Assembly: GCA_022813865.1 (NCBI GenBank)
Contig: JALDZX010000026.1
Coordinates: 1-64,000 of the forward strand
Direction of reading: 5' to 3'
Origin: Xylographa opegraphella
Lineage: Eukaryota
Length of the DNA stretch: 64,000 nucleotides
Each line of letters opens with the position of its first letter. The stretch's first letter is position 1. Of this stretch, positions 6,142 to 56,502 are shown one piece after another. The notes under the pieces were generated by a model. It did not search any database, was not told where the DNA came from, and saw only the letters and a program-made list of their open reading frames with translations. The translations under genes were made by a program, and so were the position numbers.

Positions 6142-8357
6142 CTACCATTCATAACCCTCGCAATGCAGATATACACCCTCCGCTCCGGTTCCTTTGCTAG
6201 CCCCTCGTTGGTCACTTACACTCGCAACGGTATTCCTGACCGCTTTGTTGAGCGCTGCAGGACCACAAACTGCGACCCCAGTCTCGCCGTGCGCATGGTC
6301 AAGAGCCGTCCAGAGAATGGAACGAATGTCTGGCCGGCCAGAGGTCAGAGTGCTGAATGAAGCCAGCCGGGATCTGAGAAGAGACATGGGCGATACGGTG
6401 CGGGTGTGGACAGAAGCCGGGGATTTTTGAGAGCCGGGATTAGGTTTCTCAGTTGTGGCTGTGAACGGCACCGCTTTCTCGTCGGAAAAAGGCGGCTGCA
6501 GCACTGGTGCAGAGGTGATACCATCGCCCTCATCATCGTGTTCCTCCAAACCGGTTTCGCAGCAGCACGGGCCAAGGCGGACATCGCAATCGCATCCACA
6601 CTGCCGTGTGTCCTCCGCTGCCTCCGTGAAGGAAGGGTCACAGGTGACGTTGATATGGACAGCGATTTCAACACCGACTCGATGAAGACTCTCGATAGCC
6701 GCGTGAAGTTCATTGACGATCCATAGGGCCCACTCGGCATTCTTGATCATCCAAACAAAGACAACGTTTCGAACAGGGAGATTGTGGATGGAAGCGCGGT
6801 GAGCAAGGTCGAGTAGAATGGGGAGAATAAAGGTCACCCCGGTAGAGCCGGCAATGAGGATGGCGGTGTCAAAAGCGGCGAAGTCGGAGTGAGATGCTCC
6901 ATATGGGCCGTCGATGAGAGCCAGAAATTGCTCTTCCGGGTCAGCAGTTGGCTCGACCTTTGGCTTCTCAAAAAGATTCTCTGTCGATGAACTGACAGCT
7001 CCATTCAAAATCCGCTTCGTGAAACCTTTGTGCGCACGTAGAATAAAGACAAGGTCGTTGTTGTGCGAGGATGGTATGGACGCGATGGTGGCCGGATGAG
7101 ACTGCCCGATGCCAAAGCGAGGAATGCAGAGAAAGACATGCTGGCCAGGCTTCCACGACTTGACTCTGTGGGAACGGACGCTGACCTTCGTCACACCACC
7201 TGGAAGACTGATCAAAGTAGCTCTGCCCGGCTTACTGTTATTGAAAGCGGAGCGAGCGAAGCGGCTTAGACGGTCAAGTACGAAGAAGCCGATTCCCAGC
7301 CAAATGAAGATTCTGACCAAGACATTAGACCATGAAGGGGCCGTTCTTGGATAGGTCTTACCTGGCATTCAAAGCATTGGGAGGAATGTGATAGAAGACG
7401 GCCACGAGGAAACCCACGAAGGAGATGACGTGCTGGACCACGAAGAACTCGTACGAAAGATTTCGAAGTGGCGCTGTACTGCTGAAGACCAACCAAAGTA
7501 GCAGAATCCACGTGGCAAAACCTACTATAATTAGCATCCGCATGTTAAAAAAAATACCGAGCGTAAATTCACCAGTTGGAATACACGAGTCCGTGCTGAT
7601 CTCGATTTGCATCACTCCATACTCGTTCCACCCGACAAGCTGGTAAGCTCCGTGCAAAGTAGCAGTCAGGAGGATGACTCTCGCGACCCATCGATGTAGA
7701 ACCTGCAAACGCTCGTACGATACCCCGACAAGGATTCCAATGAGGTTGTTCTTTCCCGCGAGCAGGATGAGAAGCGGGAATTGGGCAACCGTCAGCCAGG
7801 CCGCCCGAAGACCTCGAGCTTCCCAGAACTGCGCTCCAGGGTAATCAACATTGAAGAATTCGAGACCGAGCACGAATCCCAGGTAGGTTAGGATAAGCAT
7901 CGATACTCCGAACGCAGGTATTCGCAACCAATGTGATCTCGTAGGAGAGACCTGAGGGTAGGACGCCTCGCGGACTATGGAGGTCACTGTAGCCATTGCA
8001 GATGTGAATGGGTTGGAAGCATGAGCCGGCCGAGGATGGTTTGCAGCCGCAGCCCGAAGTCTGTGCCATATTTAGCCTCTCTGAACATGTAAATGAATAG
8101 ATCGAGCAATATTGCGCGTACCTCGTCTTCAATGTTGCCCAACGAAGAAAGTTGATCGCTGTAGCGAGGAATATCACAACCACGATGCCATACCAGAATG
8201 CTCCTGTGACCGCCCAGTCGAATGGTTGCAAATCAGTGTCATCAAGCATGGCTGCGAGGAAATCCGATGCCACGGTATCATTTGACATGTCCATGCCGAT
8301 ATCAGATAGACCTGGGCCTCCTGTCGGCATTGCGCCGTCGCCACCGTCCATGTCCAT
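6142..8357 (-). CDS. Ferric/cupric reductase transmembrane component (FRE family), 4 exons
   Basis: Predicted exons 8357-8122, 8060-7573, 7521-7362 and ~7313-6142. Heme-binding segment LHRWVAR...LHG; FAD-binding HPATIAS; NADPH-binding IDGPYG, LIAGSTGVTF and VAVCGP; C-terminal YLHCEGYEW. Confidence 0.9.
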
Positions 8358-8613
8358 GTTGGAAATGTCGCTTAGTTATTCTTCTTGACGATATGAGGTT
8401 CTGCAGCGCACGGGGCAAAATGACACCTGAGAGGACAGATAGGGGATGAAACAGAACATGCGAGAGGAGTAGTTATCCTCAAGTAAGAAGACGTAAGGAT
8501 CAAATTCCTCTCAGATGGCGTATTTTGAGTTCCAGAATCTACACTCGCTGTTTAGGTGAGATTGTCGGTCCGCCCCACACCAAATTGGGTCGCCGAGGAC
8601 TAGCCGCTGCACT

Positions 8614-8629
8614 TGAGCAAGTTTGCGCA
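8614..8629. promoter_or_regulatory. Candidate paired copper-response elements (Mac1-type CuRE)
   Basis: TGAGCAAG-TTTGCGCA. TTTGCGCA (8622-8629) matches the yeast CuRE TTTGC(T/G)C(A/G). The adjacent inverted TTGCTCA is a near match. Both lie in the shared FRE/CTR promoter. Confidence 0.45.
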
Positions 8630-8806
8630 CAATTCTGCTGAAGGATGGGTGAAGGTAAACCGAACATCAGACGTACGTAGGCTAGGCTTTGCACGATGGC
8701 TGGTGATGATCGATCAAAGAGAGACGCCGGTTCTTTGTTGTAGTTTTCGAAGCCGCTGAACCTCCAGCTTGAAGTCCACATTCTTCATCGACAAGACCCT
8801 CCAACG

Positions 8807-9335
8807 ATGACCAGCACAACGTCCATGCCAGGCAGTATGGCCTCGGCCAGCAGTGGAATGTTGAGCGGAATGTCAAGCTCCTTCAACGTCAACAACTTTG
8901 CGACAACATTATATTCCACGGATTGGATGCCCACCACTCCAGCAGGCTATGCCGGATCATGGCTCTTCCTCTGCTTCCTCGCGTTCATCTGGCGAGGCTT
9001 GATTGCCACCCTCTTGAAGCTGGATGCGTACTGGACCCGCAAGCACGAGACTTATAGCATTCTCGTGGACGGAGGGAAGGAGCGCGTGGACCGGAAACAA
9101 ACGGTGGAGGTTTGGAGGACGTCGGTCAATCTTCCGCGGGCCGCGCTGACAACGGTGATCCAAGGAATTGCATATCTCCTGTACGTCGTTCCTCCGGCGG
9201 CGTGACTCTCTCGATTTGTGCTGACGCGAGTCCAGGATGATAGCTGTCATGACCATGAATGTCGGGTTCTTTTTCGCGGTGCTGGTGGGCTACTTCATGG
9301 GAGAGCTGTCTTTCAAGCGCCTCCATGCTCGATAA
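8807..9335 (+). CDS. CTR-family high-affinity copper transporter, 2 exons
   Basis: Met-rich N-terminus (MTSTTSMPGSMASASSGMLSGMSSSF) and a TM segment after W.P. Intron 9181-9235 joins YLL to MIAVMTMN (the CTR MxxxM motif), followed by GYFMG (GxxxG); stop TAA at 9333-9335. Confidence 0.9.
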
Positions 9336-31821: not shown

Positions 31822-34131
31822 TCAAAATATTCCCCAACGCTTCCATTTCGTCTTCTCTTCCGCCGCCGGTTCTGCCTGAGCCGGCACTGCGGACTTTTCT
31901 TTCTTCGCTCTCCGCGGCGGCGGCGAATTCGTGGAAGCAAGCGTACCCCCTGATGCTGCAGCGCTGATTGCGTTTATACGGTGCTTCGCACGCTCGTCGC
32001 CCAGATCAGCGGCACGGACGTACCACACGTTGGCTTCCAGCGGATCTCGTCGACAGCCAATCCCCATCTCAGTGAAGTATCCTACCGCATACTGTGCTTT
32101 AGGCAGCCCTGACGAGTCGTGTTAGATCGAAGATGAAGCAGGATTGTTCACGCAGGACTGACCAGACTCGGCCGCCTTAAGCGCCCACTCATACGCTTCA
32201 TTCTCGTCCTTCTCTAGCACAGGTTCTGCGCCAACCATATACCAAGCACAAAGAGCCATCATCGCTAAAGGATGTCCCCGTTGCGCAGCACCCGTGTAGA
32301 AATGTACACTGAGCGCAGGATCTCTAGGACAGGTTAATTTCCCGTGCTCGTAAGCATCACCGAGTCGGTAATTTGCTTCTGCATGACCGAGATCGGCTGA
32401 CTGAGTGAACAACTGAGCCGTATAAGACTCATCTTGGAAAATGTCAGCGCCATACCCCGTTTCGTGAAGTAACCCCAGCTCATAAGGTGCCGAGTTGTAC
32501 TGGAAGTCAGCCGCCTCTGTAGCTCGCTTAAGCCATTTGAGACCTTCCCGATATCTGTTTCCGAGAGCCAGCTCACCCCCCAAACAAGCCAAAGCCAGTC
32601 GTGTCATCGCACCAGGGTGATTTTTGGAAGCCGCCTGACGGTAAAATTGAACAGCTTTGGTGGGATCGCTTCTGGTCCCCCAGCCGAACTCATAGCATAA
32701 CGCAGCACGGTAGCCAGCTTCAGCATGACCATGCTTACTTGATGCCACGAACAAGGGGAACGCTCGATCGTTGTCTTCCCTACCTCGATTGAAGAGCCCA
32801 GAGGCGTATCCGTCGGCAAGGTAGTATTGTGCATACGGATAACTTTTGTCGGAGAGCCGCTGCAATATCTGTTTGGCTTCGCGGAGAAGCTCAGAATTCG
32901 GTCCGCCAGCTCTCTCATCCGCTGCAGATCCGTCAACGTTTCTTACTGGCATGGGACTTTTTTGCCGTTCTGTATTGCCGAGGTCTTGTCCATTAGCGGT
33001 AGCTTCTTGAGCTGCGTTTATCATAAATATCGCAAACTCATACTGAATGGCCGGATCATTGGTCTTTACGAGATTGGCTCTGTACATTTCCAGAGTCTTC
33101 TTAGTGCTGAGCAGTGAAGCATTAGCGCCTACGGCTACCCGTAAGTGGGCATTATCAATGTTTGCTGAAGGTGCAGGCTGTGGATACGGCACGTTCAGCA
33201 AATCAATAAAGGATATCGGACGGTTGTCAGGCGACCTCGTGCCCTGAGAAGAAGTATTACGATTATGACCATTGGGTGAGAGTTGCGGTGAACGCGTCCG
33301 ACCTCTTGCAGCAAATTCAGAAGTGGCGGAGAGTGCCGATGCTGGCCTTGAAAAATTCTCTCCTAATATAGAGTGTCTGTGTGCTGATCCCGTGGCTGCA
33401 CCATTGGCCGTCCGAACCCCAGTCGCATCACTTTGACTCTGTTGGTGGTGGTATTGCAGAGAAGGGGCCATTTCCGGAGCTTGACAACCACTAGGAGGAC
33501 GTCTAGGAGTTCCATTACTCACGTTACTCCTTACGCTGTCGTCGCTAGTATTTCTGTCATGAGGTGACTTGGATCCATTACCAAAATTTCTGATCTGTCT
33601 ATTGTACGGATCTCCTGCTTCTGGAGTCACTATTCTTGGTGAAATAGTTCTCACGTCGTTCAGTTGGTGCAGCGATGTGACGGATGACTGCTGTGTATTT
33701 GGGAATGGATTAGGACTCAAACGTAGAGTTTGCTGCTTCATGATGGGTATCTCATTGCTGACAGACTTGATCGTGCTCTTGAGAGGCGCTGGATATTGTT
33801 CTCCAGATGGTGTTCTTGAACGATCGAAGTATGACGAGTTATAGTCTTCGATCTCAGTGGATGATGGTTCGGGTATTTGGTAATCAGAGGAATTGTTAAT
33901 GTGGACCGGAGACACCGGTCCTTCTTGAATACGGGTTCCCATTGTTGTCATTGGAAAGGGTACTGGCTTTCTATTGGGAGACGATGTGCCATGTCGATTC
34001 AAGCTCTCTTCTGACGATTGTCGCTGCGGATAGCGCTGTGAAAACGGTGGTGCTAAGGTCTGCATGGTATCCAATGGCGATGGCTTCGATGGTGAGGGCG
34101 CAAATTGGCCAGTATCGTATAGCTCCACCAT
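31822..34131 (-). CDS. Chitin synthase activator (Skt5/Chs4-like, Sel1 repeats), 2 exons
   Basis: Low-complexity N-terminus followed by Sel1-like repeats (YAQYYLADGY, AGYRAALCYEFGWG, ANYRLGDAYEHG, AMMALCAWYMVG); intron 32162-32109; last exon AQYAVGYFTEMGIG...KWKRWGIF*. The start codon is uncertain. Confidence 0.88.
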
Positions 34132-35882
34132 TGTGTCCTTGTCGATACTTAACACAAGAGAGTGTAGTGGTTCTTCAGTGTACGGTTGTTATCTGCCAAC
34201 CCCGAAATTCATTTTCAAGTCGACCTGGCGCGTGTCCACAAATCGTTGGAACTTTTTTTCTCGCCGGCGCAACTGATAACTTTCGTATGGGTTGTGCCCA
34301 GCACAACGAGTCAAGTTTTTTGCCTTTGCTGAGAAGGCTTCTTTTGGGAGACGTGGAAGTTGGAAAGCCTGCTTTCTTCATCCGGTCAGCAAATACGGAC
34401 TGAAAACAGTGTACGAGATTGTGGGATTGAGGACCCCAGTACTCGCAACTACAGTCCCAATGAGATCAAGGACAGGAGGGGCAATGTGATAGTCGGTTGC
34501 GGACTGACAGTCACCCAGTAACTTCGCAAGTCAACAATGAGTATAACGAAGGGCGGTTGCCGCACGAGTACGTCTCAAGATGGCATGAAACTTCGAAGAC
34601 CAATTCGACGATCCTAAAGCTCGACTGCAGTGGCAGGATCACGAAGTCATAAGTGAGCGTCAGAGAGTACCTGTACGAGGTTTATTTGTTGGGGGGAGGC
34701 TTAGGATGAACGGGCTTAGTAACATGCCACACAAACACCTACATACTGTGCGAAGGTACTGCCACATGCAAGACCTCATGTTTCGCCCTGCACCAGAGCC
34801 GTATGTACGGTAGCATGGCCCGAAGTCCTCCTCCGTTGTACTCCCAAGCCTTATGAAATCTATATTTGTACAAGTTCTGAGACAGCTACAACGGTAGGCG
34901 TCAAGAGAAGGAATATATCCACTCCCTCCCGATCCCTCCCTTTCAGGGGCAATGGTCTCCAACAACAGCTCTCCTATCGACAGTGACTGGTACGAAGTAA
35001 TGCAAGGTACCTTCAATGGTGTCGTCGGCCCTGATCGCCGACAGGGATAATCCGCCAATCCACACGTTATCGCCGTGCATGTGCATCGCTGGTGAACTGG
35101 ACTCTCTGCCTACATGCCTAGATACCTCGCGTTGGACAGGTGCAAAGCTCAGATGCTGTAGCCACTTTGAATAGAGACGACGGGTTTTCTGGTAGTACGG
35201 ACGAAGCCGGAGTCATCGAATACGATGTTGGGGCCATTGGTGCATTCGTGATTTCTTGGTGGCATTTCTATCTTTAGCCCTCGGCCGTCGCCCCGCCAAA
35301 CGCATCCCGGTCCCCGCCCGTAACATTTCTGTAGCCCGGAAGGCCGCCCGCCGAAACTTGTGACGCGCGGGCTGGATTTCATGAAATATTGTCCCTGATT
35401 CTTGCAAAACACCACATCTGTTGACTCCACGGCCAAGACACAACCGCCACTGTTCCTTGTCTCTTCTGGCTTCCAGAACCCTCGCAATCTATCACGCTCG
35501 TTTGCTCTGTCCCACCAGAAACTCAGTCACACCTTCAAATTTTTTCCGTGACGACCACAAGCGTCCCCTAAGTTGAACATCACAATCTCCCAGCCTCGGT
35601 TGAGGCTTCCTTGTCATACAACGCTCTTCTTCAGCTTTTGCCACGCGAGAAATAACGGTTCGATTCTATCGGGGAAAACCGCTACTGAACATACTTACAC
35701 TCAAGTCAGCCATCGCTGAAATGCTTCCCGCACATCCTTCTCAACTCTGCTGAGCTACGTATGCTTGCCAGAGAAGCTGAGCACCGCAGATTGTGGTAGC
35801 TTTGACTTGGAGGAGACAGCTTCGTAAGTGCAGATCAAATGTAAGGACAAGCTCAGGAATGCTTAAATAGCGTCTTAGCATC

Positions 35883-38800
35883 ATGTCGCTCCCACAGAAG
35901 CCCCACGCCACGTCTCCCCGGCGAAGAGATCGGAGGGACAGAAATTCGCAATACCGAGACTCTCCGCGACGGCGTTCTCGACCTCGTGATATCGAAGCTG
36001 CGCCATACTACGATAACCCGCCAAGTCCTTACTACTCTCCCACCAAGTCCTCTCCCACACGGAGACCAAGACAGGAAGCATATATACGATCCGCCGATTC
36101 CCCGATCGATCGGAGCATAATGGCTTCACCTTCCAATGTGAATGAGCTTGGGCGAAAGAAGAGCCTGGTGCGGCCCGAGCGGAACAAGATTGACAGGGAC
36201 CATCCGAATTACCAGTACCGTAAGCATGCGCAGAACATGCCGGTCTATCCTTCCACGACAGGTAATGATCTTGTTACGGAGGATATCGAGGAGGACGATT
36301 CGGTACCTCAGGAAGAAGCCGAGTTGAAGGTTTTGACAAATTCGGAGCACGTTTCGTTGGGCAAGGTGAGGGACTCGGAGGACTTGCCGCGACGTAAACA
36401 CAGACGCCGGAGACGCTCGACCACAGTAGGAGATGATGGTACACGTCGATTACACAGGAAAACAACAAGGAGGGAGGAGATGGTACTCTCCGAAAAAGAA
36501 AAGCTCCGGCAGAGAGATCGCGACTCCGTTCGTCCTCCAAATCTTTGGAACTTCTATTGTTATGTAATAACGTTTTGGGCTCCTGGACCAATTCTTGCTT
36601 GTTTTGGGAAACCTGCCAAGGCTCAACAGCGAGCATGGAGGGAAAAGATCGGTCTCATATCGATCATTATCCTGATATGTGCCGCCGTCGGCTTTCTCAC
36701 GTTCGGATTTACTCAAGCTGTTTGTGGCATACAGCCTGTTCAACAACATGTCAACAGTATCGGAAGAGACACCATGATATTTCATGGCCAAGCATATAAC
36801 TTGAATGGAATGCGACACCCAGGAGCACAAGGCATACCAGACGGTAGTAACGTCCTGTATGATCTTCCACACAAATATGGTGGTCAAGATGGAAGCTTCA
36901 TGTTTCAAAATGTCAACGGAGCTTGTAAAGGACTGATTACACTTGCGCCAAATTCCGATGTCCCAACGAATGCTGCTGGTGATCTTGCTTGGTATTTTCC
37001 ATGCGTAGCGTTCAACCAAGATGGGTCTAGCAAACCCAATGACACCATTGAGTACTATCTTGGTTATTCATGCCATACCACAGAAATCGCCAGGCAGGCA
37101 TTTTATCAATATATGGTCAGTTCTGGGGACGTATATTTTAATTGGGACGATTTAAAGAATACGAGTCGTCGTTTGACAGTGTATTCTGGCAACGTCTTGG
37201 ACCTGGAACTTTTGAGATGGTTCAATACCTCTCAAGTCTCAGTGCCAGCTTCATTCAACGATCTTCTCGATAATCCCGCCGTATGGGGCACCGATCTTAC
37301 TCATGCTTTCCAGTCCGGACCACAGAAACAACTTGGTCAGTGCCTGTCCGAAATCATTCGAGTTGGGTCCATAGACACAGAAACTGTTGGCTGCATTGCG
37401 TCAAAGGTGGTGCTATATGTTTCTTTGGTATTTATCCTGTCGATCGTTCTGGCCAAATTCTTTCTCGCTTTGGCATTCCAGTGGTTCTTGAGCCGCCGCT
37501 TTGCGGCTTCAAAATCGTCCATATCAAAAAACCCCCGAAGAAGAGCTCAAGAAATCGAGGATTGGACGGACGATATCTACCGTCCACCGCCAAAGATGTC
37601 GGATCCTGCCTCAGACACGCATAGCAGGAAAGGTAGCATGTTTTTACCGACAACTTCGAGGTTCACAAGTCCTTACCTTACGGATCGAGCAATGATAAAA
37701 GATCATCCAGCACCAACCACAATGGCTAGTCAGAGTACTACGGCGAGAATGCTGCCACATGCGCCCTTGTATAGGAACTCGATCCCTAGTACTGGTACTC
37801 TACCCACCACGAATCCCTCAACGCGACTTAGCATGGCCGGAAGTCGCTCCAGTTTACTCGTGTCAGGTTCTGGACAAGAACAAGGGACGGCAACAACGAT
37901 GACGGATATCGAAAGCACCGGTCCTGCCGGGTTCATCCACGAAGCCGTTGTTCCTCAGCCTCCGCCAGATTTCCAGCCCTTCGGATACCCATTAGCACAT
38001 GCAATATGCTTAGTGACAGCTTATTCCGAGGGTGAAGAAGGGCTGAGGACAACCCTCGACTCGATTGCGACCACAGAATATCCAAATAGTCACAAAACCA
38101 TACTCGTTATATGCGATGGCCTGGTGAAAGGCTCAGGTGAAGTTCTGACAACTCCTGATATCGTTCTTGGAATGATGGGTGACTTTGCCATACTTCCGGA
38201 TGAGGTCGAACCGTTCTCTTATGTTGCTGTTGCGAGCGGATCGAAGCGCCATAACATGGCAAAGGTGTATTCGGGCTTCTACGATCACGGAGAGAACTCT
38301 AGGATTCCTGTCCACAAGCAGCAAAGAGTCCCCATGATGATCATCGTCAAATGTGGCACTCCTGATGAATTGAAGAAAAGCAAGCCCGGAAATCGTGGAA
38401 AGCGCGACAGTCAAATCATCATCATGTCATTCCTTCAGAAGGTCATGTTCGACGAGCGTATGACTGAGTTGGAGTACGAGATGTTCAATGGCCTGTGGAG
38501 GATCACCGGTATATCGCCGGACTTTTACGAGGTGGTATTGATGGTAGATGCAGACACCAAAGTCTTTCCGGACAGCTTAACGCACATGGTGTCCGCGATG
38601 GTGAAAGATCCCGAGATCATGGGCCTATGCGGAGAGACGAAGATTGCGAACAAACGCGCGAGCTGGGTTACCATGATACAAGTTTTTGAGTAAGTTCGAC
38701 TCAGCTTCGCATAGCTGATCTCTGCTGATCATTACAGATATTTCATCTCCCATCACTTGTCAAAGTCATTCGAGTCAGTCTTCGGTGGTGTCACCTGTCT

Positions 38801-39710
38801 GCCAGGCTGCTTCAGTATGTACCGGATCAAAGCCCCAAAGGGCGGCCAAAATTACTGGGTGCCCATTCTCGCAAACCCTGATGTCGTGGAGCACTACTCA
38901 GAGAACGTCGTCAATACGCTCCACAAGAAGAATCTCCTCCTCCTTGGCGAAGATCGATATCTGTCAACCCTCATGCTCAAGACCTTTCCAAAGCGTAAAC
39001 AGGTGTTTGTTCCGCAAGCTGTCTGTAAAACTACGTGTCCCGAGCAATTCTCCGTCCTCCTTTCTCAACGTCGTCGCTGGATCAACAGCACTATCCACAA
39101 CCTCATGGAGCTGGTCCTCGTTCGCGATCTCTGCGGCACTTTCTGTTTTAGCATGCAGTTCGTGGTATTCATTGACCTCGTGGGCACGCTAGTCCTTCCA
39201 GCTGCTATTACATTCACCTTCTATCTAATTATTATATCTATTGTGAAGAAGCCTGTCCCCGTTATCCCGCTGATCCTACTGGCACTAATCCTTGGTCTTC
39301 CTGCTGTTCTTATCGTTCTCACCGCTCACCGCTGGTCGTACGTGGTGTGGATGTTAATTTATCTCTTATCGCTGCCGATATGGAATTTCGTCCTTCCCAC
39401 GTACGCGTACTGGAAGTTCGACGATTTCAGCTGGGGTGACACGCGCAAGACTGCGGGCGAGAAAACGAAGAAAGCAGGGATTGAGTATGAGGGCGAGTTC
39501 GACAGCAGCAAGATCACAATGAAACGTTGGGGCGATTTTGAGAAAGGTTTGTTTGATTCAAATAATGTACTTTCGTTTATTGACCCCGGTCTAGAACGCC
39601 GCCAACGAGCGCCGGCCTCTCACTGGTCTAACCAGTCAACTTCCGTTGCACCTGGTTGGCAGCCCAGCGTACCATCCCATTCCCAGCGCTATTACGATTC
39701 GGATGTCTGA
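35883..39710 (+). CDS. Class IV chitin synthase (yeast Chs3/Aspergillus ChsD type)
   Basis: AWREKIGL, cytochrome b5-like region, [40 protein letters not shown] and DDFSWG; intron 38690-38737, and a probable in-frame 48-nt intron near 39547-39594. Confidence 0.95.
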
Positions 39711-40536: not shown

Positions 40537-41358
40537 TCATTCGATGTAACTGCGAAATTCCGACATGGCATCATTTTCCAGGAGAAACTCATCCTTCTCG
40601 TCCTCAGAATCATCTTCAATTTCTTGGTCGCTGCCGTCTTCGCCCAACGCTAGATGAGAGCCTTTGACTCTCAATTCATGTCCATGGATCGGAACTGACT
40701 TGTTGTCGAAGAAATGTCTCGAGACCACGGTGTCGTAAGCCACGGCAAATATCTCTTCGATGTCTACTGTACCGGCGGTGTACCTTCCCACCGAACGGCC
40801 CGTCGAGCCTTCCATTGCCACGTCTAATTCGGCCGGCAACCCTAGTGCTTCACCAATCGGGGCAGTAGCACGCACTTTCGCAGCACGGCTTTCTGACTTA
40901 TTCAGCTCGTATATAGTACTCGTAGTGGTTAAGAACCCGACCACCATATATATCTTGCGTACCTTATGCATCCGCATCAAGGCCCGAACCTCGGCGGCCA
41001 TCCTGGGATCACGCATAAGCTGATGAAAGCGCGAGGGAATCTGCGTCATCTGATATCTCTTGACATGCTCGCTTCGCATCGAGACCGAGTGCTCCTTGTC
41101 TTTCTGCCCACCGATACTAAAATATCTGGTCAACTGAGCGCGTATAGAACTGTTACTCGCGCCCTTTATGATGTCTTCGCGGCTTTTGTATACGATTGGT
41201 TCTTCAAGGATGTCTGGGACGATACTTTGAGGGCCGAAATGCTCTGGTGTGAAGGCGTAGTTGGGATCCAAAGGCTTCAGAACGATACGGCCCATGAAGC
41301 TGGGAACATGCTTCTCATGGACGGAATACGGAAGTACCAAAAACCGCTGCGGTCTCAT
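40537..41358 (-). CDS. Fungal gasdermin-like pore-forming protein (RCD-1/HET-Q1 family), 273 aa
   Basis: Intronless ORF of gasdermin size. Order of motifs: N-terminal FLVLP...MGRIV..PLDP; alternating beta-hairpin segments (YFSIGGQKDKEHSVSMRS; LDVAMEGSTGRSVGRYTAG); the family-typical IYMVVGFLTT and EEIFAVAY; LALG followed by a 34-aa acidic tail. It is adjacent to a protease gene. Recognised by pattern only, not by HMM. Confidence 0.8.
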   Translation of the reverse strand: MRPQRFLVLPYSVHEKHVPSFMGRIVLKPLDPNYAFTPEHFGPQSIVPDILEEPIVYKSREDIIKGASNSSIRAQLTRYFSIGGQKDKEHSVSMRSEHVKRYQMTQIPSRFHQLMRDPRMAAEVRALMRMHKVRKIYMVVGFLTTTSTIYELNKSESRAAKVRATAPIGEALGLPAELDVAMEGSTGRSVGRYTAGTVDIEEIFAVAYDTVVSRHFFDNKSVPIHGHELRVKGSHLALGEDGSDQEIEDDSEDEKDEFLLENDAMSEFRSYIE

Positions 41359-41865
41359 CAGCAGGACCTTGCGGCCATGGAAATGGTTCTCACGTCGTCC
41401 TTCATCCTTTGAAATGTATCAAACGCACTCTAAGCGGGGTCAACTTCGGAACTTCTGCTCTACCAAACTGCTCCAGGAAGTCTGCGACTGAAAGATCTTC
41501 TGTGAATATTCACTCAAATATTACAGTGACGCTCCCGCAAGATGAGGTATTTGTGGCATCCATCCTAGCTTGAACTTGATGCCGAGACCGAGCCTAGTTA
41601 CGAAGCGGAAGCTCCGCCACTCTTATCAGCCTCGCGCTAGGACGCCGACACACTCATGGTCCTGCGAATCATGGCTACAGTTTAGGCGCCCAAAGGTCTA
41701 AACTCGTCCCAACGCCTGGCTGCAGGACAGGCGGACATGTACGTGAGAATAATCATGTCTCAAGGGCAATCGCTAGGTCGAATGAAGGGAGTTTATGTTA
41801 TTAAACACTCCCCTTTGTTCAGCTTCGGTCTCTTGGTAGTGTAATCTTGTTTTTTAACTTCTCAG

Positions 41866-44800
41866 ATGAACATTATGCAGCAAATTACAGTATTCGAGCG
41901 CCAATACATACTAGAGCATGGCCGGGGCTCTTGGATAATTGATGTCAGTATCAATGGGGAGAGCTTTGAGCAGAACTTGAAACTCGAAGACCCCTTTACC
42001 CCCGAGGATGAGGCTGAGTGTCGTTGGTATCTGGAGTCATTCGCTCCGAAATCGCCTTTCGAATTGACCCGGGCTAAAAGAATTGCTGAAAAGCTCGACT
42101 TGTACGCAACTCAACTGGGGGACGGCATTCGACTGCTTGATCTAGTGTCTCGGTTTCCACGACTCGATCAACCTCAATATATTGAGCTGGAAGTGGTCGA
42201 AGGGTATCCTGATGCCAAGATCGATTCGCCAGATGCAAGTATACAGAGGCTTCACTGGGAGCTGCTCGAGAACTGTCTTCGCCATTCTGAAGGACCTTGG
42301 CCAATCTCTGTGACACGCAGTATCAGGAATGAGAACAAGACGTGTGGTATCAAGAAAGTAACGTCCTGGGCGGTAGAGAAAGCATCGGACGGTCCGAGAA
42401 ATAGCTTCAACATCCTGCTCGTGGTTGCAAGGAACCTGACGTTCGATGAGAGTGCCCACCAGGACGTAGATCCTGGTCTTACACTCAGAGCTCTTCTCGC
42501 AATCAAAAGACACCTGAAAGTATCCAACGCCCCATACGAATTGAATGTCGAAGTAGTACGACCAGGCACTTTCAATGCCCTCCAAGAGCACCTACAACGT
42601 GCGACCGAGGAGCATGGCCCTGGCTACTTCAACCTGGTACATTTCGACATGCATGGCATTATTGGTTCTCATAATGGGTAAGCCGTTATAGTTTGCTGCT
42701 GTTTGCGCTGCAGCTGATTTTATAGATCTTATCATGCTTGGCTTATGTTCGCAAATGCTTCATCTTGGAACAAAATGAAACCTGTTCGATCTGGCAGCAT
42801 CGGCAGATTGTTGAAGAAATACGATATCAGTATCGCTGTGCTCAATGCATGCGAAAGTGCAAGACCCAATAAAGGCATGCAAGCCAACCTGGCTCGGTCC
42901 TTCATCGAGGAAGGGGTCACAAATGTGCTCGCAATGGCATACAAAACCATGAGTTCTGCTGCGCCACTATTTTTAAGAGCGTTTTATCAAGCTCTCTTTC
43001 TAGAGCATGCTCCATTTTCACGTGCCGTCAGCCAGGCTCGAGTCTCCCTGCGAGATCATCCTAAACGTGCTGCTCGCTGCGGCATCGAAGTTGATCTACG
43101 GGATTGGTCAGTCCCAGTTGCGTATGTCGCGAACGGAGTAAACATTAGAATCATGTCAGCACTGAATACCCCGTTCGAAGCCATCGAGGCCATACCACAA
43201 GTTATGTCAGCTTCTTCCGAACGAGGAGTGGTTGGTCGTGATTACGAGAAACTCCGCTTTGAACGGCAGCTTCTTGAGACTAAATCTGTCTATCTTCATG
43301 GACCTGCTGGGTAAGTTTACAATCATATGTTGAAAACATTGGCTATAGGCTGATATCTTTAGCTCTGGTAAGACCCAGATGTTAATCGAGCTGTACAGAG
43401 AGTGGGAAGAAACTGGCTTTATGGATCATTGCTTCTACGTCGACTGTACAGCCCTTCCGAATTTCAACATTTTTATGGCCCTAGTAATAATCGATACTGA
43501 GCTGGATGAATCCGAAACGACGTGTAATTCTAAAGCGAAGATCACGCCCGAGAAGATCGCAGATCTCTCCGCCATACGTGAGCTACTTGACAGAATTCGC
43601 AACAAACGCGTGGTGCTAATTCTCGATGCAATGGACGAACATCATCCCATCAAGGTCAATTACTTTCCATTCTACAACGTAGAGAGCTTTGACGACAAGA
43701 AAGCGGCATGCAATCGGAGTACAGCAGATAGCTTTTTCGTTGCCTGCCGTACGTTACCAACCCTGTTTACTATCGTAGTCGGCCGCCAGGATCAGACGTG
43801 GTTGCAAACACAATTCCCAAACTTTCGGGCCTCAACTTTTGAGCTTGCGGGCTTGGATCTGCCATCAGCGATTGACTACTCGGAGATGATCTTGGAGAAG
43901 AGGTTGATTCCTCGTAGCCGTAATGGTACAGAAGCGGATGCATTAGTCCACATTATCAATCTGCTACAAAGACTTCCGCTTGCTCTGGAAATGTTTTTGT
44001 CAAGTCCTTTCAAGGAGGCAAGTCTTTACGATATCTACCAAGACCTTATTAATGGGAGAGGACTTGCTGCCACACTATCGAAGCGTCCTCGATACTACAT
44101 CAACGGGACTGCCCGGTTTCTACGAAGTCTGCCTAAAATATATGATGATAAACATCAGAAAATCTTCTATCTCTGTCTCGCATCATTCTGGCGACTGGGG
44201 CCATATGATGGGTTTACATTTTACTCTGAACCGGGATCCAAGGACCCATACACAGGCGTCGGCACCAGCTTTGCTTTGCGAAAATTAGATGCAGCTGGAG
44301 TCATCAAGGTTAGCGGGAAATGTGTATCATGGATTCACCCCCTGTGGACTCTTTATATACGTTTCAAACTACACGATTCTTCATACGTCGGAGGTCCTTT
44401 CGAGTGTATTGCTTGGCACGAGCTTTCTATACGGGCTCGATTCATGTATGATGTCTCCGATGGACTTCTCCAGGTTTTGAAACCAGTGGTTGAGCACGTA
44501 CATAGAAGTGGCTCAGATTTTACCACTGTGAAAGCTGTTATACGGGAGTCTTTTCCTAACTTCTTAACCTGTCTTCAGTTCTGTACATCCCGCTACCCAA
44601 CGATACCATTGAATTCTTGGCCAATCAATTTATTTCTTGTGTATCCCAATCATGCGCGGTTTGGCCTGAGTATATCTGAGCAGATATTGCTTGCGGAAGG
44701 CCTCGAGAAGCTCCTTGAACGTTTCATCGAACTCAATGGAGGCATGGCTGTTTCCCAAGAAAACGGCCTTCATCTCTTTGCCATAGTGTTGTGTGTTCTA

Positions 44801-46183
44801 CTCTGTTCTACATTTCACCGAAATGTTGACTTCAATCAAAAAAAGGCACAAAGGTTTACTAATCTAGGAATCCAGTTTCACGAAGCTTCGGTGTTAATGT
44901 ACGGGCAACCATCTCCGGAAATTCTTCCTCCGCTAGCCGGACTCTATACCTGGAAGGTAGTTGATCTCCTTCGCAGCGGCAACACTAAGGAAGCTGGTGA
45001 ATGGCGAGAAAAAGCACTGGGGCTAAAGCGCAAATTCACGGAAGCCTCTTGTGCAAACAAGGCGCTATTAGTCCAGGGAAGGGAGAATACATCAGAGTAC
45101 GCTCGTTTGATGGAATCTATGGATTTGCCATGGTCCCTGATGAAGATCTCCATGGAAGGGGACAAGGGCTGGCAGAGCTTCCATCAAATGAGCTTTCAGG
45201 ACGAGAACGAGCTATTCGTTTACTTATATAACCTCGACGATAGACGTGAAATGTCCGTTCATGTTGATGAAACCTCACCTTGCAACGATACCTTGGAGGT
45301 GCGCATTCGGAAGTGGTTTTATGATACTCGATCAAAACAAAGCGCAATCAATCACTTAGAAGAGGCTATCGACATAGGCGCATGGTCGCAAGCGATGAGG
45401 TTGCACTTGAGCCTCGGTAACGAGTCCACCAACCAAGGGGACCACATGCAAGCTCTCATGCACGCTGAGAGGGCTCTGAGCATTGGCAAGCAAAATTTGC
45501 CGCTGAGTGCAAGCGAGGTAAGGAGCTTTGGTCTGATGCAAGAGATCCTCGCAATATTTGGAGAGGATTCGACTTACAAACCCACATGGAAAGCTACGAT
45601 CGAATCCATACGGAGCCGCACCTCTCCTCTCATTAAACAGCTTGGAGAGGACGGACATTGGAGGCCATTGGCAAAAGCTTTCAGCTATGTGTTCGACCGC
45701 ACAGATTCGTCTGGCAAGGAGTTCGACAAAGCCATCGACCAGTGCCGGGCTCTTCTCGGGGATGAAGGGGCTGAGAATCTAAGAAGCAAGACGAAGCAAC
45801 TCTGGAAGTACGCAGATGAATTAGAAGCCGAAGAAGCGGCCGAACGCGTGGCGGAAGAGGCAGCTCGTGTTGAGGAAGAAGCACGTCAGCAACGCGAGGC
45901 AGAAAATGTACAGGTGCTACTACAGGAGCATATGGAAAAGGAGCTGCTACCAATGGTCAGAAGTGCGGGAAGAAATGACATTGCCGATGTGATGAAACGG
46001 TACATCGACATTTCACAGCGTCTCACGGAGGTCGACGATGCGGAGATAAAAGATCTACTTCTAAATGCGGCCAAGGTCTTTCCACCACATGTGGTATCTC
46101 TTTGGAGATTGACCTTATCAGCCAGTCGAGCAATTGCACTGTCTGTTGAGGCATTACAACTTCTTCCTGAGACCAAAGATTGA
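41866..46183 (+). CDS. NLR-like protein: CHAT (caspase-like) protease + STAND P-loop NTPase + helical/TPR-like C-terminus, 3 exons, ~1405 aa
   Basis: Predicted exons 41866-42677, 42726-43310 and 43363-46183. CHAT motifs: LHWELLE, NILLVVAR, VHFDMHG (catalytic His, 42637-42657), VLNACES (catalytic Cys, 42841-42858) and DWSVPV. NTPase motifs: VVGRD, Walker A GPAGSGKT (restored by splicing), Walker B VVLILDAMD and LPLALE. Confidence 0.88.
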
Positions 46184-49012: not shown

Positions 49013-50324
49013 ATGATGAGGGCAGCGCTGTGTACGGTTGCTGCTTCGATACTGTCTGGATCGTTCGCTGCGGGAGCTACATACGAACATCGCCATGCTC
49101 AAGAAGCATTCTATTCCTTAATCAAAGGCTGTGAGACCCCCGCAAGAGAAAATGCGACGTGTGGATGTACGCCCATATCTTCAAAATGCTGTGGAGAAGA
49201 GCAATGTACGTCGGACCCTGCGTTTAACCCAGGAACGACAACCACCTTAGCGATCTGAACATGGTCGCTATTGATATCGATAGTATTGACTTCTTCCTAC
49301 AGTGTTGCAACCACCCCCGATTACAACATCAGCTCTGAGTTCTCAATTGACAGTTTCCACCGCATCAATATCTATCAGTACATCTGCGCCTACTTCTCCA
49401 CCTCTAATTTCTCCATCAATCGTCCTTCCACCCTTTATATCCAGTGTATCCTCCGAAGTGACCTCATCCGGACTTTTCTCTTCGCCCTCATTCAGCTTAT
49501 CTTTCTCCAACGCTCCCACTGAGATCAATTCACTCTCGCGATGGTGCATAACCTATTCACCATACACCGCTACCGGCTCCTGTATGACGTCCTCCGATAT
49601 CGTCTCTGATATAGCCTCCATTGCTGCAAAAGGCTTCTCTTCTGTCCGCCTCTATTCTACCGACTGCAATGCCCTCTCTGCTGTCATCTCGGCAGCCGCA
49701 ACCCACGGCTTGAAGCTCGTCCTAGGAATCTATATCTCTGACGCTGGTATATCTGGCGTGGAAGATCAGGTCTCGGACATCACGAGTCATTTCGAGGGAG
49801 ATTACTCGATGGTCGAGATGGTGGTTGTGGGCAACGAGGCTATTTTCAACAACTACTGCTCCGGCGCGGAGCTTGCAGCTTACATTTCGTCAGCGAAAGC
49901 CACTCTACAAACCGCAGGCTACACGGGCCCCGTAACGACCACCGAGCCTATATCCATACTGCAGGCCAATACCGCGGAGTTGTGCGACGTTCTCGACGTT
50001 GTGGGCGCGAATATCCATGCATTTTTCAACAGCGATATCACGGCTTCCCAAGCTGGCGCTTTTGTCTCATCTTCTCTACTGGAGCTAGCTAATTTCTGCC
50101 CCGGGGACAAACAGGTCTATAACTTTGAGACTGGGTGGCCGAGTGCCGGGGATGCGAACGGACAAGCGGTGCCAGGAGCCCGGGAGCAGCAGGTAGCAAT
50201 CGCGGCAATCTTGGCGGAAGCCGGGGCCAGGAGCGCAATCGTCAGCTTTGCCGACGAGTTATGGAAGGCGGAGGGAGATTTGGGGATAGAGCAGAGTTGG
50301 GGGTGTGGGCACCTGTTCGAATAG
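49013..50324 (+). CDS. GH17 beta-1,3-glucanase/transglucosylase (BtgE/Scw11-like), 2 exons
   Basis: Signal peptide; intron 49206-49302; Ser/Pro-rich linker; ITYSPY, VRLYSTDC, VVVGNEA, NIHAFF and ETGWPS (GH17 catalytic glutamates). Confidence 0.88.
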
Positions 50325-50966: not shown

Positions 50967-52980
50967 TCACATTACCGTGAGGCCGTGGACCTCCACCCCT
51001 GCAAAGGCGCGGCAGATTCCCTCCAAAGGCAGCATCACCTCCGCATACATTGCCTCGCGCAGTGCGGTTTCCGTCGAAGCAGGAGTCCGCGTCCGGATAT
51101 TACAAAATATGCACGAGCCGATGACTCCTGCGAGCTGCGTTCCGGCGTCGTCCGCGATCTGGCGGTGCCAAGCGGCCGCGGTGGCGAAGTCGGTGAAGTC
51201 ATTCGGACGGCCATTGGGACCCAGGTACTGGCTCCGGAACAGTTGTTCCTCCAAACTCTCTCCGAACCAGAGCTCGAGGAGCAGGACGCCGAGACAGAAG
51301 ATGGCAGCATTCATGGATTCCAGAGGTTTGTCGTCGATGGTGCGGTCTTGACTTGGCGATATGTATGGCTGGTCCACTACAATGGGTCTGGCGCACCCTG
51401 CACTTGCTTTTAAGAATGCTATGTGCTTCTTATTCCAGTCTCCTCCGAGCCACGGGGTATTGCAAAGCTCAATTGCGGAGGATGCGAGCGTTGCGGCCAG
51501 AGACATTCTCTCACGTCTTGTCAGCCTTGGGGCCCGTCCATTCGTGTCTAGGGTCCATGGTTGCCCATGAGTGGTGAGCAGACTGTCCAATGTCACCGTT
51601 TCTCCCGTATCAGAGGTTGTCACCGCCTTGGGCAGAGCGTAGAATTCATGGCGTTGTCTGTTTTGATCAAGAAGGAAGCCGAGACAGTATTCTTCGTGGG
51701 GGAGATTCTGCATAGCTGCGCAAAGATTGCGTATCTCCTGCGAATGGACAGTGCGCGGTTCTGAAGCACTTGCCACATTCGGGGATGCTGCAAAGGTCAC
51801 TCTTCGAGAGTTCGAGGTTTCGGAAGCGCCAGCGATGTGGGATGTGCCTGGGACCGCAGGAAGCGGCTTGTCAACCCGCAGTCGAGAGACCTGCGACGCG
51901 ACATCATCATCGGTGCCAATGTACTCGTCTACCTTAACCTTCGCCTGTTGCCACTTCCAGGGCGATGACTCACGCGCTTTAAGTCTTGTCTGGAAGGTGA
52001 ATAGAAGATCGAAGGTATCTACCGAGACGCCGGCATTGTCCGAAAGCAAACCTTTCGAAGCTGTAGTATGTTCTCGCTTCTTGAGAAGAAGTTTCGTATC
52101 ATGGGTTGCAGAGCATGTGCATCGCCATCCTTGCGTGATGATCGCGTGTAAATTACAAGCCCGAATCCGGAATTGGGGAGATGTCGTCGACGACGGTTTC
52201 CGACGACTTCTTGCAAGAATGACCCGATCGCTAGAATGCAGTAATTCCTTGAGCTCGCTGTTGTGCTTGACCAACGCACTCAAACGCTTCTCTCGCTTCC
52301 TTCTGTTCCAAGTGAACTTGATTCGTTCCTTCTCAAAATCCAGTCTATCTTCCGGCAAGAATGGAGTCTGGATGGAGGGCAGAGAATGATCAGATCAGAG
52401 CGCGTGGAAGCGGGCGGATAAATAAGGGAACTAAGCAGAGGCGCGGAAGTATAAACAATTGCTTTCACGATAGAAAACAGCACAAAGGCAGACAACAGGA
52501 GCCTTAAGGGATAGTTATAGCGCAGTATTGGAATTGCCAGTGGCCTTCTCTGCATATTTGCATGGGAGGCTGATGTACACGTACCGTGGTGGCAATCACT
52601 TGCTCGATGCCGAACTCGGTTTTCAAGAGCTTCGCCATGATGCGATTGATCTCATCCATTGTGACCCGGTATTGGTCATAGCTTCTGGGTAGTCTTCTTT
52701 TCAATCGATCCTCAAGGTTGAGCCAAGAGGGGCCTCCAGGATCTTGCATCAAGCATTTCAGCTCCAAGTCAGAATGAACCACGGTGGTCAACAACTCCTC
52801 AAGGTTGTTCTCGAACAAGGCCCTCTGCGTTCGGAGAGTGTGGCAGAACGCCGTGAAGTTGGGTCGAAAGTGGTACCAGTCCGAAATCTTCTCATATCCT
52901 TCGCGGTAGTGCTCGGCAGCAGAGACAAGGAGAGGGAATGCAGCAAGAACGAGACCAGCTGTCTCAATCCCGGTGGCCAT
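50967..52980 (-). CDS. HeLo-like N-terminal domain + degenerate kinase-like C-terminal domain (DUF7580-type), 2 exons, ~598 aa
   Basis: Exon 1 52980-52585 begins MATGIETAGLVLAAFPLLVSAAEHY, a hydrophobic/amphipathic first helix typical of HeLo-like domains. Exon 2 52367-50967 contains RRERMSLAATLASSAIEL..TPWL..DWNKKHIAF and IFCLGVLLLELWFG, resembling a kinase C-lobe with no HRD/DFG motifs. Confidence 0.7.
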
Positions 52981-53344
52981 GCTACCTCCGCGGTGGCCTG
53001 GTGAGGCACCGAGAAGGCAAAGCCGTACTGTCGGCGATTAATCGGCGTAATGAGGAAACTCATACACGATTGGCTGAATAGTCACTTATATCATGAAGCC
53101 AACGATCAAGAATCAATTCTTCGGCGAAAAGCTGCATCATCAATGGGATGCGAAGGAACGATGCTTCGTATTGGCCGGTAAGCGCCTTGCAGAAAGACTG
53201 GGAACAACAATCCCGCCATTTCTATTTAAACACTGTGATTGGATCACAGGCGTGGGGTGGGCTTTCATTGGTCACCATCGATGCGATAATACTTCGAAAG
53301 CAGAGTTGTTTGGCTCAGGAGGCATAAGTTTCATTGCAGCAGTA

Positions 53345-56300
53345 ATGTCCACCGAGAATGTCTCTGTTTCACACCATGCGCACGTTTGTATATATTTGTT
53401 CAAGGCGACGTCTTCCCATCTGCGAAACTCGTATCAAGAATACATCAATCACCAGGAATTCCTCGATGAGTATGGACGTTACAATCTCTGGCTTCAAGAC
53501 AGCGGAGCCGTGAGGGTTGGTCGGCGTTCATTAGATCATCGCCTTGCAGAATCAACATACATCTCTGGGCCTGTTCTGTACCTGGTCAAGGACTTGCGCC
53601 AAGCGCTCGAGGAAGGTCCGCGTCTTATTTCATAAGTGCAAAGCAATGCTTACATCGGCTAGTACTCGCTATTGTCAGCGACAAAAGACCACAGAGAACC
53701 TACGAACTGCAAGAATCGGCTGCCGATGTGAACGTTGACGAATTGAGTATCAGCTCGAATTCAACCGATTCTGATTTCGACGCCCAGAGTCCGCTCGGCT
53801 TGAATCCAGGTCCGACAACAGAGCTACATCAACTATTTCTAGCCATAAACGAGACTATCAACAGCCTTTTTAGACTCTCTTACCTTGTTCAGGATCCTCG
53901 TCCCCGAGACCGCTACACGCAAAATACTTCGACCACTTCTCTCAACGAATCCTACGACATCGATCACGTATGGAATCAGTATCCCTATGTTCGCTCGACC
54001 ACCTGGCTTCTTCGTCGCCTTGGGAAGGCCAATGCTAGGCGCCGACAGTTCTTTCGAAATGCAGATGCTCGTCTAGAGCAGAGGGCTCAGGCTCAAGGTT
54101 TGCCAATAGAGGACGAAGCAGAACCGACACAATTGAACAACGAATCGGTTACAGTCGCTACTCAAAATCCTTCCACTCTTTTTTCTGTTGCGCAAAGGAA
54201 GACTAATTCTGCGATATCTTTTGTTAATAACGATGATTTCAACGAGGATGATGTACGATCAGTAACGTCGTACGGTACATCAGTGAATTCTGAAAATAAA
54301 ATGTTTAATCGTATTCCGCCTCCACCGAGAGAATCTATCAACGGACGACCATTTGAGTGTAAATACTGCTATCAAATGATAACTGCAAAATCCCCAGGAC
54401 CTTGGAGGTACGAAGCCCAATCACCTCAAGCATTAGTTTGACCATACTAACATCTGCTTTGGCTCAGGAAGCATGTCTTTGGTGATCTATTGCCTTACAT
54501 CTGCACTTTCGAGAATTGTAGTCTGAAGATGTTTGGCGAGCGTCACACATGGTTTGAGCACGAACTAAACTTCCACAGAAGAGAATGGTCTTGTTTTATA
54601 TGCTCCTACTCCTCGACAATCGAAGCAACCTTCAAGAGGCATTTGACCGTGAGCCATCACGACTTATACACCGAACCACAACTTCCATTTCTCATGATGA
54701 AGTGTGAATCGTCGATTCGTACGATCCCTGCGAATGCTTGTCCGTTTTGCAATAACGACAGCTGGACAACGCCTAGTCCAGACCTATTATCACAACCAGC
54801 CACTGGTCCCGAGAATAGTGCGAATCTGGTGAGCCTGAAACAGTTCCGCAGTCACGTGGGACGCCATATGGAGGATTTGGCCCTGTTTGTGCTTCCTCAG
54901 CGTTACGACGCGGAGAACTCAATCAGCTCAAGTTCTGATAACTCGGATACAGATAACGATTCCGAGTCTGACACACCAGCCATAATTTCTAGCAAACGAG
55001 ATCGTATGGGGCGTACATCTCTAGCGAGAGCGTGCGCTGCACAGCGGGTTGACGAGGTTTGGCGATTGATCGCAGAATTTCCGCAAGAGCTGGACGCAGC
55101 GGACTATGCAGGCAACACACCGTTACAGATTGCCAGCAGTAACGGTAACATCGAGATCGTAGAGGCACTCCTCGATTCTGGATGTGGCACGAAGTGTAGA
55201 AATAAGGTCTGGAACACTCCTCTCATGGAAGCCGCCATGCACGGACATAGCAGCGTTGTTTTCAGGTTGATTGCTGCAAGTATTAGTGCTGATGAACGCA
55301 ACGCTGATGGCAAGACGGCCATAGACATGCTGGATGCAAGTGTAGCAGATTATGAAATTATCAAAACGGCTCTTACATATGCCGGAATCGATGTTACCAA
55401 GACCGAAATCGCAGAAGCGGAACAGACGGACAATAATGGCTGGGAGAGCGATAAGACCGATACCCCTATTACCAGGCAATTGATAGTCGCAGTAGGGACA
55501 GGAGCTGAAGCTGAAGCCGAAAAACTTCTCGAGAGTGGGGGCGATCCTGATGCAAAACACTTCAGAGAAAGAAGAACGAAGATAAGGGCGCTCGACGTAG
55601 CTGCAATATACAACCACTCAACATTGATACCTTTGCTCATACGTTACGGCGCGAACATAAAGCTTGTTAATCCGGTAACACCGATCATACTTGTGGCAAA
55701 CAGTCTTGTGGAACCTCTGCGTTTACTTCTGGAGAATGGGCTCGATATCAATGTTCCCTGCTTGGACCTTAAACCAACTGCTCTTAGTTGTGCAGCGTTG
55801 AGTGGCCAGGTAGAAATAGTCAGATTACTACTGGCATTTGGCGCGGACCCTAACAGAGAGATCCCGATGTTGCCGTTGTGGCCGCCAGCATTACCAGCGC
55901 TCCACCATGCTGCAAGCACTGGTAATGAAGAGATCGTCGAATTGCTACTGGCGAGCGGGGCTGACATTCAGCTGAGAAGTTGCTTTGGTACTTCGGCATT
56001 ACACCACGCGGCATCGAGCGGTCAATGTCAGATGATACGGCTACTCGTCCGTCACGGAGCTCACCTCGAGGTCGTGGACGATGGTCGCTTGACACCACTC
56101 CTCAACGCAATCAAGCACCACAAGGTGGAAGCCTGCAAGTTGCTGTGCTCGCTTGGCGCCTCCACCAATTCCAACCCGGCGAGGCAAGGGGCACTGTCCT
56201 ACGCCGCTGAGCAAGGCCAACTCCCAATAGTACAATACCTGCTCGATGAGGGAGCCGATATCGATACCTGCGATACCGGGCTCGGAACTCCCCTTCACCA

Positions 56301-56502
56301 TGCCGCCGCTTTGCGCTTGCCGGGCATGATCCAGTTCTTGCTCCAGAAAGGTGCGAATATATCGATCAGAAACGTTCGAGGGAAAACGGCGCTGGATTTC
56401 GTGGTTCAGAGTGGAGCTGAAAATCTGGCGAAAGTGTGGTCCACCTATGCGGTTGACAGGAACCCCACGAGTTCCAACGATGCGGATACTCCCAATGACT
56501 AG
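53345..56502 (+). CDS. Helical N-terminal domain + C2H2-like zinc fingers + ankyrin repeats, 3 exons
   Basis: Predicted exons 53345-53615, 53663-54407 and 54468-56502. N-terminal EYGRYNLW..DSGA...SLDHRL and RRLGKANARRRQF; zinc-finger segments FECKYC...WRKHVFGDLLPYICTFENC, WFEHELNFHRREWSCFIC...HL..SH, CPFC...HVGRHMEDLA; about 10 ankyrin repeats (GNTPLQIA, TPLMEAA, ALHHAA, TPLHHAA). Confidence 0.82.

Follow-up and report, generated by a model that had tools for sequence, protein, structure and literature searches.

A co-inherited pseudokinase and zinc-finger gene pair in a lichen-forming fungus, with a possible role in regulated cell death

Two genes of the lichen-forming filamentous ascomycete Xylographa opegraphella lie head-to-head within the 64,000-nucleotide (nt) window analyzed here (contig JALDZX010000026.1, positions 1 to 64,000, of GenBank assembly GCA_022813865.1). 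Gene A encodes a helical domain followed by a kinase-like region, and gene B a helical module, C2H2 zinc fingers and ankyrin repeats. Are these two genes neighbors by accident, a co-regulated pair, or the two halves of one system? We show here that the pairing recurs in the same orientation in other lineages, and it is highly probable that A and B constitute a conserved functional unit. More tentatively, we read the pair as a module of two genes that in filamentous ascomycetes are inherited together, transcribed divergently and active in regulated cell death, an interpretation that we consider possible and a little short of probable. What is understood of regulated cell death in fungi comes from a small number of gene pairs in which HeLo or gasdermin executioners are combined with NOD-like receptor (NLR) or protease partners.

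A conserved head-to-head gene pair

The locus has the following organization.

50967-52980, minus strand: gene A, 598 amino acids (aa); exon 1 at 52585-52980, exon 2 at 50967-52367 including the stop codon.
52981-53344, no strand: intergenic spacer of 364 nt common to A and B, between the divergent start codons.
53345-56502, plus strand: gene B, 1016 aa by our revised model; exons at 53345-53615, 53663-54407 and 54468-56502.

An initial annotation of this DNA had placed the start codons at 52980 (minus) and 53345 (plus), 364 nt apart, and both coordinates are confirmed by our gene models. It had also raised the question of whether homologs of the two genes are linked elsewhere, and we find that they are. 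In X. pallens the A and B homologs carry consecutive locus tags. We then surveyed metagenome contigs, scanning them with the A alignment and subsequently, by tblastn, with parts of B. This yielded 30 loci with relatives of A that are 25-41% identical to the query, except for a fragment of 37 residues (59%). Of these loci, 15 contain the start of A and at least 5.7 kilobases (kb) of upstream sequence, and every one of the 15 has the B N-terminal module and fingers on the opposite strand, at a distance from A of 381-932 nt as measured by alignment ends; the A relatives in these linked loci are 25-39% identical. In one further locus, where the upstream sequence spans 1.2 kb, the B match is partial, and the other 14 of the 30 are uninformative, having at most 752 nt upstream or a weak A fragment only. 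Where the start codons are placeable, the spacer measures 381 nt (locus L009), 167-239 nt (L021) and 336-441 nt (L015).

The independent cases of linkage comprise four lineages that are mutually 25-55% identical, the partial case and Xylographa. Because the pairing recurs in other lineages it is not due to chance. Only the A-B pair itself is conserved, and not its neighborhood: in five representative loci, all open reading frame (ORF) matches at E ≤ 1e-5 fall inside the pair, with the exception of one transporter-like match in the flanks. Pairwise identities show that A and the conserved part of B diverge in parallel across lineages. In a quick tree of the B-family core, built after three short sequences were dropped and from a sample in which relatives of the query are over-represented, the B genes linked to the Pfam family of gene A (DUF7580) span a clade of 63 of the 154 sequences with a support of 0.8, and the pairing may thus reach well into the B family.

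Gene A encodes a predicted pseudokinase

Three features of gene A can be delineated.

52606-52980, minus strand: N-terminal helical domain, aa 1-125, from an alignment of 13 N-termini and structural models.
51021-52181, minus strand: DUF7580 (PF24476), aa 195-581; Pfam E 2.1e-25, 90.5 bits against a cut-off of 27.
50991-51614, minus strand: kinase C-lobe-like portion of DUF7580, aa 384-591, predicted to be catalytically dead.

Translation of gene A begins at the ATG at 52980 and its exons are separated by a 217 nt intron (52368-52584, donor GTACGT, acceptor CAG). The spliced product, which begins MATGIETAGLVLAAFPLL, is identical letter for letter to the deposited 598-aa protein P0001. Exon 2 makes gene A a clear member of DUF7580, and all the A relatives found match this family as well. 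No function is described for DUF7580, and the family is unmentioned in the literature searched here, whose coverage excluded subscription journals and supplements.

The full-length AlphaFold model of A, computed from 35 aligned sequences, has a mean predicted local distance difference test (pLDDT) score of 66.7 and a predicted template modeling (pTM) score of 0.44, with pLDDT values of 80-94 across residues 480-580. Protein kinases and pseudokinases are the only proteins among the matches listed by Foldseek for this model, at weak E values of 1.3e-3 to 8e-3 and probabilities of 0.89-1.00. The A-family sequence profile retrieved no kinase, HeLo or MLKL chain from the PDB at E ≤ 10. In an alignment of 11 A sequences, the zone between helices 416-432 and 480-500, corresponding to the catalytic loop and DFG motif, conserves W438, W443, F450 and P466 only, and shows no full or nearly full conservation of Asp, Asn or Lys, the residues expected at the HRD motif, catalytic loop and DFG motif; this loss is judged from the sequence alignment together with the model helices rather than from residue-level structural superposition. 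On account of the Foldseek kinase matches and the missing catalytic residues we identify DUF7580 here as a pseudokinase, with a predicted kinase fold from which the conserved catalytic residues have been lost. This agrees with the kinase-like C-lobe without catalytic motifs that had been noticed in A at the outset.

The N-terminal domain of A is predicted to form helices at residues 4-65, 71-79 and 84-123, and is followed in the full-length model by linker helices at 139-213. The first helix is hydrophobic and conserved (E6, G9, L12, F15 and P16 in the alignment of 13 N-termini).

The gene B family is large, with a constant core and exchangeable C-termini

The protein encoded by gene B is built from four consecutive parts.

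53345-53691, plus strand: N-terminal module part 1, aa 1-100, with conserved C15, F19, R45, W49, S62-L63 and L84 (family alignment).
53809-54096, plus strand: N-terminal module part 2, helical, aa 140-235, conserved pattern ...RLS..I.NP.P.DR...DI.HV...P...RLGKA..RRRQ... (family consensus and tblastn matches in the loci).
54358-54897, plus strand: four C2H2-type fingers, aa 323-482, ending H.GRH..DLALF.LP (pattern scan; intron 54408-54467 lies inside).
54997-56499, plus strand: ankyrin-repeat C-terminus, aa 516-1016, lineage-specific (Pfam Ank_2 5.1e-61, Ank 2.5e-50).

The second intron of our gene model (54408-54467) is 60 nt long with the canonical signals GTACGA..CTAAC..CAG. It restores the family-wide motif PFECxxC...W.KHV..DL.PY.C, and relatives of B have an intron at exactly the same place. 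The deposited 947-aa model of B, P0012 ('Ankyrin-2'), removes approximately 70 residues of the finger region and with them conserved residues, and was rejected. The upstream ATG at 53093 was likewise rejected as start codon, since the N-terminus of the family lines up with the ATG at 53345. The deposited models in three Xylographa species (P0012, P0013 and P0014) each drop a different piece of the zinc-finger region, and on the basis of the family consensus and the canonical splice signals we favor one short 60-nt intron over these models.

Several domain assignments for B made in the initial annotation hold up. The motif EYGRYNLW..DSG is found at the N-terminus, the 'several' C2H2-like fingers correspond to four Cys2-His2 patterns within aa 323-472 in a pattern scan, the ankyrin repeats are recovered as Ank_2 matches in five stretches and Ank matches in seven, and B is NTPase-less as proposed, in that no nucleoside triphosphatase (NTPase) family (NACHT/NB-ARC) matches the gene B exons at E ≤ 0.1.

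An HMMER search with B residues 1-322 retrieved 1815 representatives at E ≤ 1e-3 and 691 at E ≤ 1e-10. As a lower bound, the family comprises 1815 clusters at 50% identity. Members range in length from about 130 to 2186 residues and have a core in four parts: a helical stretch of approximately 100 residues (C..F..L ... DE.GRF..W.GNIGA...SLDYRLRDAS...LL.DL), an acidic linker, a second helical segment (RLS..IRNP.P.DR ... FDI.HV..KFP...RLGKAI.RRRQY..YRE.HH.KL), and four C2H2 fingers that end H.G.H...LALFALP. The N-terminal module as such corresponds to no Pfam domain. Domain counts were made on the 149 best relatives, 50 of which match zf-C2H2_4 at E ≤ 1. Behind the core, ankyrin repeats are found in 13 of the 149 and the NACHT-type NPHP3_N domain in three, a few relatives have TPR, WD40, RhoGEF, BAG, homeodomain, ARID, PHD, Myb or a chromatin-remodeling subunit, and in many the C-terminus has no recognizable domain.

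The genes that partner A relatives in the metagenome loci are 35-42% identical to B across the finger region and differ in what follows it. Their C-termini contain TPR in L009, a protein kinase domain in L025 and a weak NACHT-type NPHP3_N match (E 0.0035) in L021, and no ankyrin match lies beside the A relatives in any of the 30 loci. The C-terminal repeats of B are thus swapped between lineages for other domains (ankyrin, TPR, kinase and a weakly NACHT-like region), as the initial annotation had predicted. In L025 the B-family partner (5978-9176, minus strand) spans two ORFs and ends in the protein kinase domain (Pkinase E ~1e-4), so that genes for a kinase and for a pseudokinase lie head-to-head here.

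Relation to known systems

The closest likeness to gene A is found in MLKL, which in animals and plants combines a four-helix-bundle killer domain, a brace and a pseudokinase. Gene A has the same layout: a helical N-terminal domain that starts with a hydrophobic helix is followed by linker helices and then by a predicted kinase fold that is catalytically dead. A 2025 review mentions HELL domains on kinase and pseudokinase proteins, and for this reason the layout of A is, by analogy, of an already known kind.

The known fungal pairs HET-S/NWD2 and HELLP/PNT1 consist, as described in reviews, of an NTPase receptor and a partner that has an amyloid motif in common with it. Like A and B they are adjoining genes, with exchangeable ankyrin, TPR or WD40 repeats on one partner and with N-terminal domains of HeLo type, putatively so in our pair. 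They differ in that B is without NACHT or NB-ARC (three of the 149 relatives have one) and that A and B have no common amyloid motif. Furthermore, in our pair the weakly HeLo-like domain is on the repeat-bearing protein B, and the other partner, A, is a predicted pseudokinase. A second comparison is with the 'all-in-one' fungal NLRs that begin with a HeLo or HELL domain. In B, too, a putatively HeLo-like N-terminal module precedes superstructure-forming repeats, but four C2H2 fingers take the place of the NTPase and a dedicated pseudokinase gene adjoins.

The claim in the initial annotation that this architecture is uncharacterized must therefore be narrowed: the HELL-pseudokinase combination is mentioned in the 2025 review, and the zinc-finger partner is unreported in the literature searched. 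Within the same coverage, the identification of DUF7580 as a pseudokinase, the constancy of its zinc-finger partner, how large and how variably built the family of that partner is, and the weak HeLo signal in this family are likewise unreported, and no title or abstract describes a HeLo domain combined with a zinc finger and ankyrin repeats. To the Pfam entry the present analysis adds a predicted kinase fold and a conserved partner gene. DUF7580 is hereby identified as a pseudokinase whose constant partner belongs to a large family of zinc-finger proteins. If the two proteins are functionally coupled, the pair offers a testable two-gene system for the control of MLKL-type pseudokinases outside animals and plants, and bears on the role of the many ascomycete 'C2H2 plus ankyrin' proteins.

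A possible role in regulated cell death

By analogy with the systems above, the A-B pair could plausibly work in a cell-death or immune-type mechanism, although we would not call this probable. B would sense a cue by means of its exchangeable C-terminus and would act jointly with A, probably by direct contact. The helical N-terminal domain of A, of B or of both would then be released to attack a membrane, and the outcome would be regulated cell death or an immune-type response achieved without an NTPase or an amyloid motif. Since B has no NTPase and the partners have no segment in common, coupling would occur by ordinary protein contact, or by phosphorylation in the lineage in which the partner bears a kinase. 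Predictions of a complex between full-length A and B residues 1-330, made without family alignments, scored 0.58, 0.63 and 0.62, but one unrelated control scored 0.49, and we draw from these scores no conclusion on binding in either direction.

The HeLo signal that connects the pair to cell death lies mainly in the B family. The Pfam HeLo model (PF14479) matches 16 of the 149 B relatives at E ≤ 1 (9/79 and 7/70 in the two sets), and is the only family, other than finger and repeat families, to recur in their N-terminal module. The best match, in the relative P0069, reaches 24.3 bits against a cut-off of 23.2 (E 3.2e-5). All six HeLo alignments viewed are co-linear, with the N-terminal part of the protein lying on positions ~8-130 of the 205 in the profile. 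At the family level the N-terminal module of B is therefore likely, on the evidence of profile matches, to be distantly related to HeLo. For the N-terminal domain of A, a language-model look-up points to near clusters of which one is 29% HeLo-bearing (score 0.94) and another 13% PigL_N-bearing (0.89). The same look-up with B residues 1-230 returned unnamed clusters only, with scores of at most 0.89.

A number of observations weigh against this interpretation. The HeLo evidence in the B family is mostly sub-threshold, with one of the 149 relatives above the cut-off. The X. opegraphella B protein itself has no HeLo match at E ≤ 1, its first residues are not markedly hydrophobic, and a search of the PDB with the B N-terminal profile gave five chance-level rows that include neither HET-s nor MLKL. 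None of 11 A-family N-termini or proteins matches the HeLo, PigL_N/HELL or SesA models of Pfam at E ≤ 10. The models of the A N-terminal domain show a long helical hairpin, with generic structural matches, and no compact four-helix bundle. Confidence in both A models is moderate (pLDDT 70 and pTM 0.39 for the N-terminal domain, 67 and 0.44 for the full-length protein). A published survey reports that AlphaFold performed poorly on the largest HeLo-like cluster of that survey, and we accordingly do not take the hairpin as a negative result for a HeLo fold. No domain common to A and B is detected by hhalign (probability 0.1% for the families and 4% for the N-terminal domains), which also argues against an amyloid-type relay between them. 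Finally, 12 of the 15 linked loci belong to a single lineage at 90% identity.

These results alter the division of labor envisaged in the initial annotation. Its view of the A N-terminus as HeLo-like is not upheld, the language-model likeness being the sole lead, and its impression that the B N-terminus recalls HeLo is borne out in the weak recurrent matches of the family and not in B itself. The description of A as executioner and B as sensor is consistent with the NTPase-less, C-terminally swapped B. The assignment of roles is not established, and either protein is a candidate executioner: the first helix of A is the more hydrophobic of the two, whereas the evidence for a HeLo relationship is better for B.

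It would be a further step to see in this pair the founder of a widespread, unrecognized fungal death or immunity module independent of NTPases and amyloids, in which a B-family receptor (HeLo-like N-terminal module, C2H2 fingers and swappable ankyrin, TPR, WD40 or kinase sensor) would control an MLKL-like pseudokinase as a counterpart of RIPK3-MLKL. We regard this broad generalization as improbable.

Alternative explanations

The main rival, itself unlikely in our estimation, is that B is a C2H2 transcription or chromatin regulator that controls the pseudokinase gene A through the common 364-nt promoter, in a cassette unrelated to cell death. Divergent regulator-target gene pairs are common among fungi, and the arrangement fits this pattern. 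Among the many C2H2 chains matched by the B-family finger profile are TFIIIA (E 1.9e-7), Zif268, GLI and YY1, and the homeodomain, ARID, PHD, Myb or chromatin-remodeling subunit on some relatives is of the nuclear type expected of such a regulator, which counts against a cell-death role. Set against this, some of these nuclear-domain fusions may be gene-model errors, the finger spacing is irregular, and B relatives also have weak matches to the non-DNA-binding zf-Di19, DUF629 and autophagy-receptor fingers. C-termini with ankyrin, TPR, WD40, NACHT-like or kinase domains would moreover be unusual for transcription factors, and the recurrent HeLo matches in the N-terminal module would be left unexplained.

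Somewhat more doubtful is the proposal that A and B are kept together by a bidirectional promoter or co-expression alone, for example in a stress or developmental program, and that the proteins have no direct interplay. The conserved short spacer of ~170-450 nt and the lack of a common domain would be as expected, yet the linkage outlasts divergence to 25-40% identity while the flanks change, which exceeds what is usual for co-expression, and the parallel divergence of A and the conserved part of B is not readily accommodated. Chance adjacency or ordinary local synteny of close relatives, suggested by the dominance of one lineage among the linked loci and the close relationship of the Xylographa species, is highly improbable given four further independent lineages with the same head-to-head order and a single flank-to-flank ORF match among five loci.

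Other genes in the window

The genes around the A-B pair are ordinary, and include a chitin synthase with a Sel1-repeat partner, PEX13, ATG6, ATG14 and calnexin. Adjoining gene A is a 344-aa ORF (49290-50324) which has no Pfam match at E ≤ 1 and contains an 'ETGWPS' stretch that we presume to be glycoside-hydrolase-like. Another head-to-head pair occupies 40540-46183, where a 293-aa minus-strand ORF without a family match (P0166, 40540-41418) faces a long plus-strand gene (41845-46183) with a CHAT caspase-like match (E 8e-12) and weak matches to NACHT (E 0.036) and to TPR. At 32125-39707 the Sel1-repeat gene (minus strand) is head-to-head with the chitin synthase gene (plus strand), which is of class IV type, in what looks like the usual activator-synthase arrangement.

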